Source of the DNA: a virus | Lineage: Duplodnaviria; Heunggongvirae; Uroviricota; Caudoviricetes | Strand: one strand, 5' to 3' | DNA: 64,000 nt | Virus record (IMG/VR): IMGVR_UViG_2721755662_000004 | Shown here: positions 15,794 through 16,459 of the stretch, in pieces | Layout of the letters: each line of letters starts with the position of its first letter | Position numbering within the stretch: position 1 is the stretch's first letter | Made by a program: the position numbers and the translations under genes | Notes under the pieces: model-generated | What the model saw: only the letters and a program-made list of their open reading frames with translations | Database searches by the model: none | Told to the model about the DNA's origin: nothing

Positions 15794-16459
15794 ATGGCTG
15801 TTCAAATTTCTGTCGAAAACCTTTCCCCTGTTACCTATAACCAGATCCCCGTAATTACTACTGAACTGTTGGCTCACCTTTACGGAACAAAAATCAAAAA
15901 CATTTCTGATAACTTTCTGAACAACACGACGCGATTCATGCCCGGAAAGCATTACTTTAAAATTGAAAAAAACGAATTACGCGAGTTTAAGAACAGACCC
16001 GAAACAATCGGGTTAGTTGGTAAAAATGCCCGCTCCCTCATCCTCTGGACAGAACGCGGCGCAGCCCGTCACGCAAAAATGCTCGAAACCGATCGGGCGT
16101 GGGAGGTATTCGAAAAACTGGAAGACTGCTATTTCAGCCAGGGAAAAACAGCACCAACCGAACAGCAGCCGCAGATTCAGCCACAATTCACAGCCGAAGA
16201 AATCATCCTCCTTTGCTACATGCAGCTCTGGATGGAAAAAGCCCAGGACATCAGCAAACACCTGTATCCCATTATGAAAGAGCTGAACTCCTCATACACG
16301 AACAAGCTGTATGACATTGCGTTTGAGACCATCTACATGGTGACGAAGAACAGAGACGCGCTACTGAGGGAGGTAACACGTCTCGACATGTCAAGTTCCG
16401 TTATCCAGCGGGCCATGCCAATGCTGAAAAGCCTGCGGGCAAGACAATTTGAATTCTGA
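15794..16459 (+). CDS. Antirepressor-type protein (N-terminal DNA-binding domain plus ANT/KilAC-like C-terminal domain)
   Basis: 221 aa; C-terminal 98 aa identical to C-terminus of 59909..60538 product. Confidence 0.7.
   Translation: MAVQISVENLSPVTYNQIPVITTELLAHLYGTKIKNISDNFLNNTTRFMPGKHYFKIEKNELREFKNRPETIGLVGKNARSLILWTERGAARHAKMLETDRAWEVFEKLEDCYFSQGKTAPTEQQPQIQPQFTAEEIILLCYMQLWMEKAQDISKHLYPIMKELNSSYTNKLYDIAFETIYMVTKNRDALLREVTRLDMSSSVIQRAMPMLKSLRARQFEF

Follow-up and report, generated by a model that had tools for sequence, protein, structure and literature searches.

The 278-nt inverted repeat analysed here is, with a probability that we put at roughly 0.8, the "mod1" allele of a portable C-terminal domain-coding module common to the antirepressor-like cassettes of 933W-type lambdoid phages; the same allele is present in two oppositely transcribed cassettes and therefore takes the form of an inverted repeat with arms 43.5 kb apart. 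Judging from sequence comparisons, the module appears to mediate cassette swapping, not inversion of the late region, and the changes seen are insertion, deletion, relocation, and gene-conversion-like patches. The observations that bear on this reading are the repeat itself, the protein domains, the RNA leaders and their complementarities, the alternative 3′ tails, the mosaic breakpoints in relatives, and the positions of a BRO cassette.

The stretch of DNA analysed (64,000 nucleotides, hereafter the window) is 100% identical to part of the genome of E. coli FORC_043 (NZ_CP016828.1, 2472163-2536162), and likewise to four sister genomes. RefSeq annotation places both arms within a single 933W-like, stx-negative prophage of about 62.5 kb integrated at ynfG, as follows.

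Immediately left of the window: ynfG 3′ fragment and integrase (RefSeq)
1-61510, no strand: host prophage, with both arms inside (RefSeq annotation)
20467-20672: STnc100 sRNA, full-length match, 165 bits (Rfam)
61510-61593: ynfG 5′ fragment (RefSeq)
61604-64000: ynfF (RefSeq)

No common word of at least 10 nt was found between the two junction regions searched for an att core, and the prophage boundaries therefore rest on the split ynfG annotation. From the left end the prophage carries leftward exo-bet-gam together with a RecE-family gene, next CI/Cro/CII, with the CI-like repressor at 7820-8527, and after these O/P-like replication genes and a nin region with Q; in the middle a SASA esterase gene, lysis genes, terminase, portal, and an N4-gp56-type capsid gene; and on the right tail fibres, a 2,784-aa LPD38 protein, and a leftward accessory block adjoining attR. 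There is only one integrase, and one set each of replication, lysis, and structural genes. Gene order and near-identity place the element among the 933W/Sp5-type short-tailed Stx phages, with the stx cargo site after Q empty here, and the Stx1a prophage of strain 2009C-3133, at the same ynfG site, is collinear with the window. No stx gene is present in the prophage, where Q (19694-20128) is followed by STnc100 and then by the SASA esterase gene (20894-22804); the place of STnc100 between the two is that of stx1AB in the collinear 2009C-3133 prophage.

Several other features of the prophage are recorded in their own right: a hok/sok-type toxin-antitoxin locus in the nin region (13503-13827, comprising a sok Rfam match at 13503-13677 and hokD) and a second Hok/Gef gene downstream of lom (about 43617-43757); a Doc-family toxin gene (14235-14720) and a RelE/ParE-HTH pair (14771-15419, minus strand) directly upstream of the first of the two cassettes; collagen-like Gly-X-Y coding repeats at 36169-37096 (families D1-D3, periods of 9, 45, 54, and 108 nt) within a 671-aa tail fibre gene (35484-37499); and a 49-nt direct repeat present three times (D6, 63-92%) at 9359-9498 and 10222-10270, in and just upstream of a replication-initiator-like gene (9529-10611), which could represent origin iterons. 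The Rac-type kil product (5163-5384; L001 10163-10384) is named "cell division protein FtsZ" by RefSeq, apparently an annotation slip, as the record's own note has Kil inhibiting division.

A repeat search of the window returned the inverted pair (I1) as 278 nt, 99% complementary, with 43,457 nt between the arms; an earlier note on this DNA had described a near-identical module of about 260 bp.

16178-16455, plus strand: arm A, 3′ end of gene A (repeat search and alignment)
59913-60190, minus strand: arm B, 3′ end of gene B, 99% identical to arm A (repeat search and alignment)
16178-16449, plus strand: "mod1" core, 272 nt (alignment)
about 59032-59303, minus strand: "mod2", in gene C (repeat search, D5 and I4)

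Base-by-base alignment anchored on the stop codons, run as a check on identity, gave a perfect run of 251 nt (16199-16449), so that identity at the DNA level is not lower than had been inferred from the proteins. Since even 20-nt matches are expected by chance only about 0.002 times in 64 kb (an arithmetic estimate), a perfect inverted match of 251 nt is far beyond chance. The arms differ at 16183 and 16198, both mismatches being synonymous, and all similarity is lost abruptly upstream of 16178. The final 10 nt of the two ORFs differ at third codon positions and the stop (TGA vs TAA) only, three codons past the DNA-identity tract thus being kept at the protein level only, and the identical encoded C-terminus comes to 93 aa, where the note had counted 98. 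The note had placed gene A correctly at 15794-16459, and the arms are indeed the 3′ ends of two convergent genes annotated as antirepressors; the interval that it took to span most of the late region holds the whole of that region together with ninB-Q and the right-end accessory genes.

A second inverted pair (I2, I3, and I6; 12741-13302, plus strand, and 55678-56404, minus strand; 79-90% identical) lies in two DUF551-domain genes (12622-13206 and 55774-56502). The arm-coordinate sums of I1 and of I2/I3/I6 differ by about 7 kb, and the two pairs are thus out of register, which rules out one large inverted duplication; the DUF551 pair is therefore a separate module common to the nin and right-end accessory regions.

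The genes that carry the module, and their neighbours, are as follows.

15794-16459, plus strand: gene A, 221 aa, WP_000290554.1 (RefSeq and Pfam)
17378-18061, plus strand: gene D, ORF6N and canonical P22_AR_C (Pfam)
18136-18858: KilAC-type gene (annotation/domain search)
59909-60538, minus strand: gene B, 209 aa, WP_000211519.1, "phage antirepressor Ant" (RefSeq)
59022-59654, minus strand: gene C, 210 aa, Bro-N and a third, diverged copy of the module (Pfam and repeats)

According to Pfam, gene A pairs an ORF6N domain (aa 12-96) with a divergent P22_AR_C domain (aa 127-190), and gene B, whose longest ORF reaches 60700 and whose RefSeq start is at 60538, pairs an AntA domain (aa 21-89) with the same P22_AR_C-like module; gene C lies directly downstream of gene B, and its mod2 is 81% identical to mod1 in DNA over the first 113 nt, the protein being clearly diverged. 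ORF6N, AntA, and Bro-N are thus each paired with P22_AR_C (PF10548), all above the Pfam gathering scores: P22_AR_C scores 30.7 bits in A, 29.4 in B, and 30.8 in C against a gathering score of 22.4, and 85.1 in D. The module itself matches the family weakly (E about 3e-7) and shares 24% identity with the canonical domain in gene D; the latter, by contrast, is 82.7% identical to the P22 Ant C-terminus over gene D aa 124-227; gene D as a whole is 82% identical to VT2-Sakai "ant". The module would accordingly appear to be a divergent member, a distant subfamily, of the P22 antirepressor C-terminal family. By analogy to P22 Ant and Phi24B Ant, we infer that the module-bearing proteins may be antirepressors or regulators in which the module is the protein-interaction part; the label "antirepressor" on these genes is based on this analogy and on the weak domain match. 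An AlphaFold model of gene A (mean pLDDT 58.8) is confident only in three long C-terminal helices (aa 134-219, pLDDT 70-86); a Foldseek search of the model against PDB returned no match at E≤0.001 and no informative neighbours, and sequence searches of PDB returned nothing. A census of domain architectures by homologous-protein search proved unusable, most of the proteins returned being truncated.

Beyond the module, the cassettes end in one of two alternative 3′ tails.

16450-16489, plus strand: tail T1, last codons ...TTTGAATTCTGA and hairpin AAAGGAGC-TTCG-GCTCCTTT (GGAGC-TTCG-GCTCC) followed by a T-run, terminator-like
about 58995-59031, minus strand: copy of T1 after gene C (repeat I5 and comparison)
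59871-59918, minus strand: tail T2, last codons of gene B ...TTCGAGTTTTAA, then the promoter-like site of the BRO cassette
59900-59871, minus strand: that site, TTGACA-18-TATATT, for the downstream BRO cassette

T1 is carried by genes A and C of the window, by the BRO genes of AST198 and E110019, by the ORF6N gene of O104:H4, and by the AntA gene of 2009C-3133; T2 by gene B of the window, by the ORF6N genes of AST198 and 2009C-3133, and by the AntA gene of E110019. The distribution of the tails is independent of the N-terminal domain, and which tail a gene has is therefore set by the presence or absence of a further cassette behind it.

At the 5′ end, each gene appears to be a self-contained cassette with its own promoter-like site and a leader of the P1 c4 antisense RNA type.

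15519-15793, plus strand: leader of cassette A (Rfam, promoter inspection, complementarity)
15519-15548, plus strand: cassette A promoter-like site TTGACA-18-TATATT, near-consensus
15542-15594, plus strand: c4-a1b1 of cassette A (Rfam)
15555-15629, plus strand: isrK of cassette A (Rfam)
15656-15740, plus strand: C4 antisense RNA of cassette A (Rfam)
15580 and 15745 (TTAGCAC), 15595 and 15776 (TCGAAAC, beside the Shine-Dalgarno sequence), plus strand: target repeats of cassette A (complementarity)
17104-18061, plus strand: cassette D, paralogue of A, with a promoter-like site and a c4-a1b1/isrK/C4 leader (17127-17325)
60539-60810, minus strand: leader of cassette B (Rfam, promoter inspection)
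60810-60781, minus strand: cassette B promoter-like site (promoter inspection)
60664-60579, minus strand: sRNA-Xcc1-family RNA of cassette B (Rfam)
Within that leader, minus strand: 7-nt target CTCGAAA of cassette B, upstream and again at -26 from the ATG (complementarity)
59655-59870, minus strand: leader of cassette C, the BRO cassette (Rfam, complementarity)
59785-59696, minus strand: sRNA-Xcc1-family RNA of cassette C (Rfam)
Within that leader, minus strand: targets TGAACAC and TCGAAAG of cassette C, upstream and at -42 and -18 (complementarity)
60806-61312, minus strand: truncated third AntA cassette adjoining attR (RefSeq, Pfam, Rfam)
60806-61072, minus strand: AntA pseudogene, truncated (RefSeq)
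61198-61114, minus strand: sRNA-Xcc1-like leader of the pseudogene, 49.9 bits, below the gathering score of 53
61312-61283, minus strand: promoter-like site of the pseudogene cassette

The assignment of these leaders to the c4 family follows from Rfam matches above the gathering scores: C4, c4-a1b1, and isrK precede A and D (C4 at 75.1 and 66.7 bits, gathering 45), and sRNA-Xcc1 precedes B and C (73.4 and 67.7 bits, gathering 53). The targets are arranged as in P1 immI, with a1/b1 upstream and a2/b2 at the translation start. Specifically, i) the sRNAs of cassettes A and C each have two 7-nt segments complementary to paired sites that lie about 190-215 nt before the ATG, and both targets recur at about -49/-42 and -18, beside the Shine-Dalgarno sequence; ii) in cassettes B and D just one of the two targets is found in both places at ≥7 nt; and iii) the loop/target complementarities are 7-8 nt long, and the paired sequences differ from cassette to cassette. 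The cassette A leader also contains a 4-codon mini-ORF, ATGATTAGCACCTGA (ATG ATT AGC ACC TGA, 15741-15755), which overlaps the b2-like target TTAGCAC; the mini-ORF could be a coupling element of the icd kind, or the overlap could be coincidental.

Direct repeats between 15535-16141 and 17120-17731, at a spacing of about 1,586-1,590 nt (D4, 95%; D7, 92%; D9, 79%), indicate that cassettes A and D, which flank ninB-ninE, are paralogous in promoter, c4-type leader, and ORF6N domain. O104:H4, AST198, and 2009C-3133 are without cassette D and the KilAC gene, NinE being followed directly by DUF1364, and the D/KilAC block is therefore an indel. A 54-nt direct repeat (D8, 98%, copies 528 nt apart at 60279-60332 and 60807-60860) similarly ties the intact AntA gene to the AntA pseudogene.

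Comparison with a handful of relatives that we inspected shows the same module allele on different proteins. In AST198, 2009C-3133, O104:H4, E110019, and TOE17, mod1 is found at 96-100% identity on ORF6N, AntA, or Bro-N, and copies across six genomes differ by 0-11 nt in 272; the closest copy in a classical phage, at 90% identity, is in 933W L0142 (annotated as hypothetical), and the module is also present in VT2-Sakai, POCJ13, and the 75/02 Stx phage. The near-identity is thus not special to the FORC_043 genome, as the same allele circulates among phages, and gene conversion unique to this genome is unsupported as stated, the AntA-linked copy of 2009C-3133 being identical to arm B. Nor is the near-identity a fixed property: within-genome pairs range from about 88% (O104:H4) through 90% (PhiR5_2) to 99.3% (window), which argues for recent replacement here.

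Breakpoints in the inspected relatives concentrate at and inside the module. Specifically, i) between the window and 2009C-3133, [mod1-T1] and [mod1-T2-BRO-mod2-T1] have reciprocally changed places at the two inverted loci; ii) gene A of the window is exactly the product expected of recombination between the two direct module copies of AST198; iii) the PhiR5_2 AntA cassette is free of differences for about 570 nt, after which the module has about 24; iv) the E110019 AntA cassette is diverged over 60237-60037 only and identical afterwards; v) the 2009C-3133 AntA cassette has a diverged leader and an identical CDS; and vi) 2014C-3307 (L009, 1152-2394) has a truncated ORF6N pseudogene followed by a full ORF6N gene under an AntA-type (sRNA-Xcc1) leader. 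These mosaic patterns indicate that leader, N-terminal domain, module, and tail are separately exchangeable. The place of the BRO cassette varies as well. AST198, 2009C-3133, and six IMG/VR contigs have it in the nin region, following ORF6N; in the window, as in three other contigs (L027, L035, and L038), it follows AntA at the right end; and E110019 has it in a different prophage, upstream of xis-int. As a separate observation, the ynfG prophage of TOE17 (L008, NZ_CP069093.1, 13056-13730) has undergone a deletion of about 33 kb that took the small terminase gene, the right-end accessory genes, and all that lies between, so that the arms are about 11 kb apart; the ends of this deletion are unrelated to the module.

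The earlier note had proposed the repeat as a substrate for RecA-dependent inversion or for recombination between prophages. That it is a substrate for recombination is consistent with breakpoints exactly at or inside the module in relatives; the inverted isomer fared differently, its junction being found nowhere that we scanned. An actively inverting repeat, by which RecA or Red would switch the 43-kb late segment between two prophage isomers, is in our view improbable, for all that the 251-nt perfect run comfortably exceeds the homology that RecA or Red requires at minimum, that genes for Exo/Bet/Gam, a RecE-family nuclease, NinB, and RusA are present in the prophage, and that the reciprocal swap between the window and 2009C-3133 is explicable by two successive inversions or by a double crossover between inverted copies. 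Both recombinant junctions were built as queries. J2 (AntA N-terminus - module - T1 - ninB) had no match at ≥80% coverage in any of 5,426 complete E. coli genomes or 50,697 phage records, and an anchored J2 pattern was found neither in IMG/VR nor in JGI/ENA metagenome contigs, a negative to be read in the light of near-identical pairs being few and of finished assemblies showing the majority isomer only, so that rare inversion in part of a culture may still occur; the same anchors recovered 17 parental ORF6N-ninB, 1 parental AntA-T2, and 6 tandem ORF6N-T2 contigs from IMG/VR, and 5 AntA-linked copies from the metagenomes. J1 matched a single complete genome, AST198, where the match reflects tandem ORF6N-BRO in the nin region and not inversion; all of the ORF6N-module-T2-BRO junctions found run into ninB (tandem), never into TraR, and collinearity with the window holds in 7 of 7 genomes that have the right end complete and unbroken. 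No serine invertase was found within the segment or adjoining it; the only recombinase annotated in the prophage is the tyrosine integrase of attL, and the segment thus shows neither the invertase nor the two orientations of a Gin/Cin/Pin-type invertible segment. Inversion would moreover put ninB-Q and the late operon behind the AntA cassette, and the inverted phage should be less fit because these genes would be cut off from pR. As for recombination between prophages, the scope appears limited: the module is carried by 193 of the 5,426 genomes, at no more than two places per genome (at most 73 records with two copies), and in the two-copy genomes inspected both copies lie within one prophage.

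That the arms are alike through strong purifying selection on the protein domain, without recent recombination, is very unlikely: selection could account for the 93 identical residues and for the three terminal codons kept at the protein level only, but every synonymous site is identical over 251 nt and the edges are abrupt, the third paralogue that this phage carries has a clearly diverged protein and reaches only about 81% identity in DNA, and relatives with identical flanks carry a 90% allele of the module. The idea that the repeat is an assembly artefact, or the joint of two adjacent prophages, is hardly credible. Such repeats do often confuse short-read assemblers, and many truncated copies stand at draft contig ends; indeed the assembly hazard foreseen in the note is plausible, as a search with the 93-aa module yields mostly "partial" CDSs cut by contig ends, several of the clusters having 40-95 member sequences. 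Against an artefact, however, the same layout is found at 100% identity in five independently assembled, finished genomes, the layout recurs in PhiR5_2, and variant versions of the arrangement occur in other genomes; against a joint of two prophages, there is a single integrase with single gene sets, and the entire element is bracketed by the two pieces of the split ynfG.

We therefore favour a module exchanged among cassettes, and infer the direction and mechanism of the exchanges as follows. In this reading a cassette consists of a sigma70-type promoter, a c4-type antisense RNA leader bringing its own target specificity, an N-terminal DNA-binding-type domain (ORF6N, AntA, or Bro-N), and the C-terminal module, and ends either in a terminator (T1) or in the promoter of the next cassette (T2). 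The prophage keeps its cassettes at two sites of opposite transcription: the nin region, read rightward, and the int/att-proximal accessory region, read leftward. Recent homologous exchange between copies in one phage, or between co-resident phages, whether via host RecA or via the phage Exo/Bet, RecE-family, NinB, or RusA functions, would leave gene-conversion-like patches or swapped modules, and could thereby account for near-identity at synonymous sites with sharp edges.

All of this would be ordinary phage mosaicism, and the kind of feature is already known. Lambdoid mosaicism arises by recombination at short shared sequences at module boundaries; here too breakpoints cluster at a conserved sequence of otherwise different genes, and cassettes are present, absent, or relocated, but unlike the classical linkers the shared sequence is a coding domain and not intergenic. 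Iyer, Koonin and Aravind reportedly described in 2002 domain shuffling among phage regulators of the KilA-N/ORF6N, Bro-N, AntA, and P22 Ant types. The present case resembles such shuffling in that a single C-terminal domain is joined to several unrelated N-terminal DNA-binding-type domains, and differs in being visible at the DNA level, with near-identical alleles and mapped breakpoints, in the exchangeability of leader and 3′ tail, and in the module being a distant P22_AR_C subfamily. As in the Mu G, P1 C, and e14 P segments (Gin/Cin/Pin), inverted repeats bound a phage segment; unlike in those systems, the repeats are 278 nt and coding (crossover sites there are about 26-34 bp), the 43-kb segment holds essential genes, and neither an invertase gene nor an inverted isomer was found.

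For the leaders the closest parallels are P1/P7 immI (c4, icd-ant) and Gifsy-1 isrK-orf45-anrP, with which the ORF6N genes here share upstream C4, c4-a1b1, and isrK models; the c4 and IsrK RNAs have been reviewed, and the P1/P7 immI c4 RNA controls ant (PMC12197685). As in P1/P7 heteroimmunity, targets of the a/b type are duplicated upstream and at the ribosome-binding region and are cassette-specific in sequence, and by this analogy the cassette leaders would follow the c4 logic of P1/P7 immI and are predicted to repress. Unlike P1, the host phage is lambdoid with CI/Cro, there are 4-5 cassettes per genome, and two of them use sRNA-Xcc1 instead of C4. Neighbouring gene D is of the P22 Ant, Phi24B, and VT2-Sakai nin-region Ant type, and the repeated module itself is distant from that type of domain. 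With ant deleted from Phi24B, induced pR′ activity falls to about 30% of the wild-type level (PMC3064807). Phi24B d_ant/24B_1 was considered as a handle and set aside: d_ant lies downstream of R, is a different gene, and is absent from the window.

If anything here is novel, it may be the description of a homology-driven array. We suggest tentatively, as a possibility on the weaker side, that the c4-controlled ant-like genes of 933W-type phages form an array of cassettes in which the module and tail serve as the joint, so that whole cassettes (leader RNA and N-terminal domain) could be deleted, inserted, or moved between the nin and att-proximal regions, whether a circle is excised and inserted again, the inverted copies undergo a double crossover, or an inversion and a re-inversion occur in succession. 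In practical terms the repeat matters modestly; anyone assembling or annotating STEC genomes should be prepared for contigs that break, and may be mis-joined, at the module. The locus provides a clean, small example of how the regulatory genes of lambdoid and Stx phages may be rebuilt from leader, N-terminal domain, and C-terminal module; if the array exists, each lysogen would carry a different set of heteroimmune regulator cassettes. The module genes may affect prophage induction and hence the release of Shiga toxin in stx-carrying relatives.
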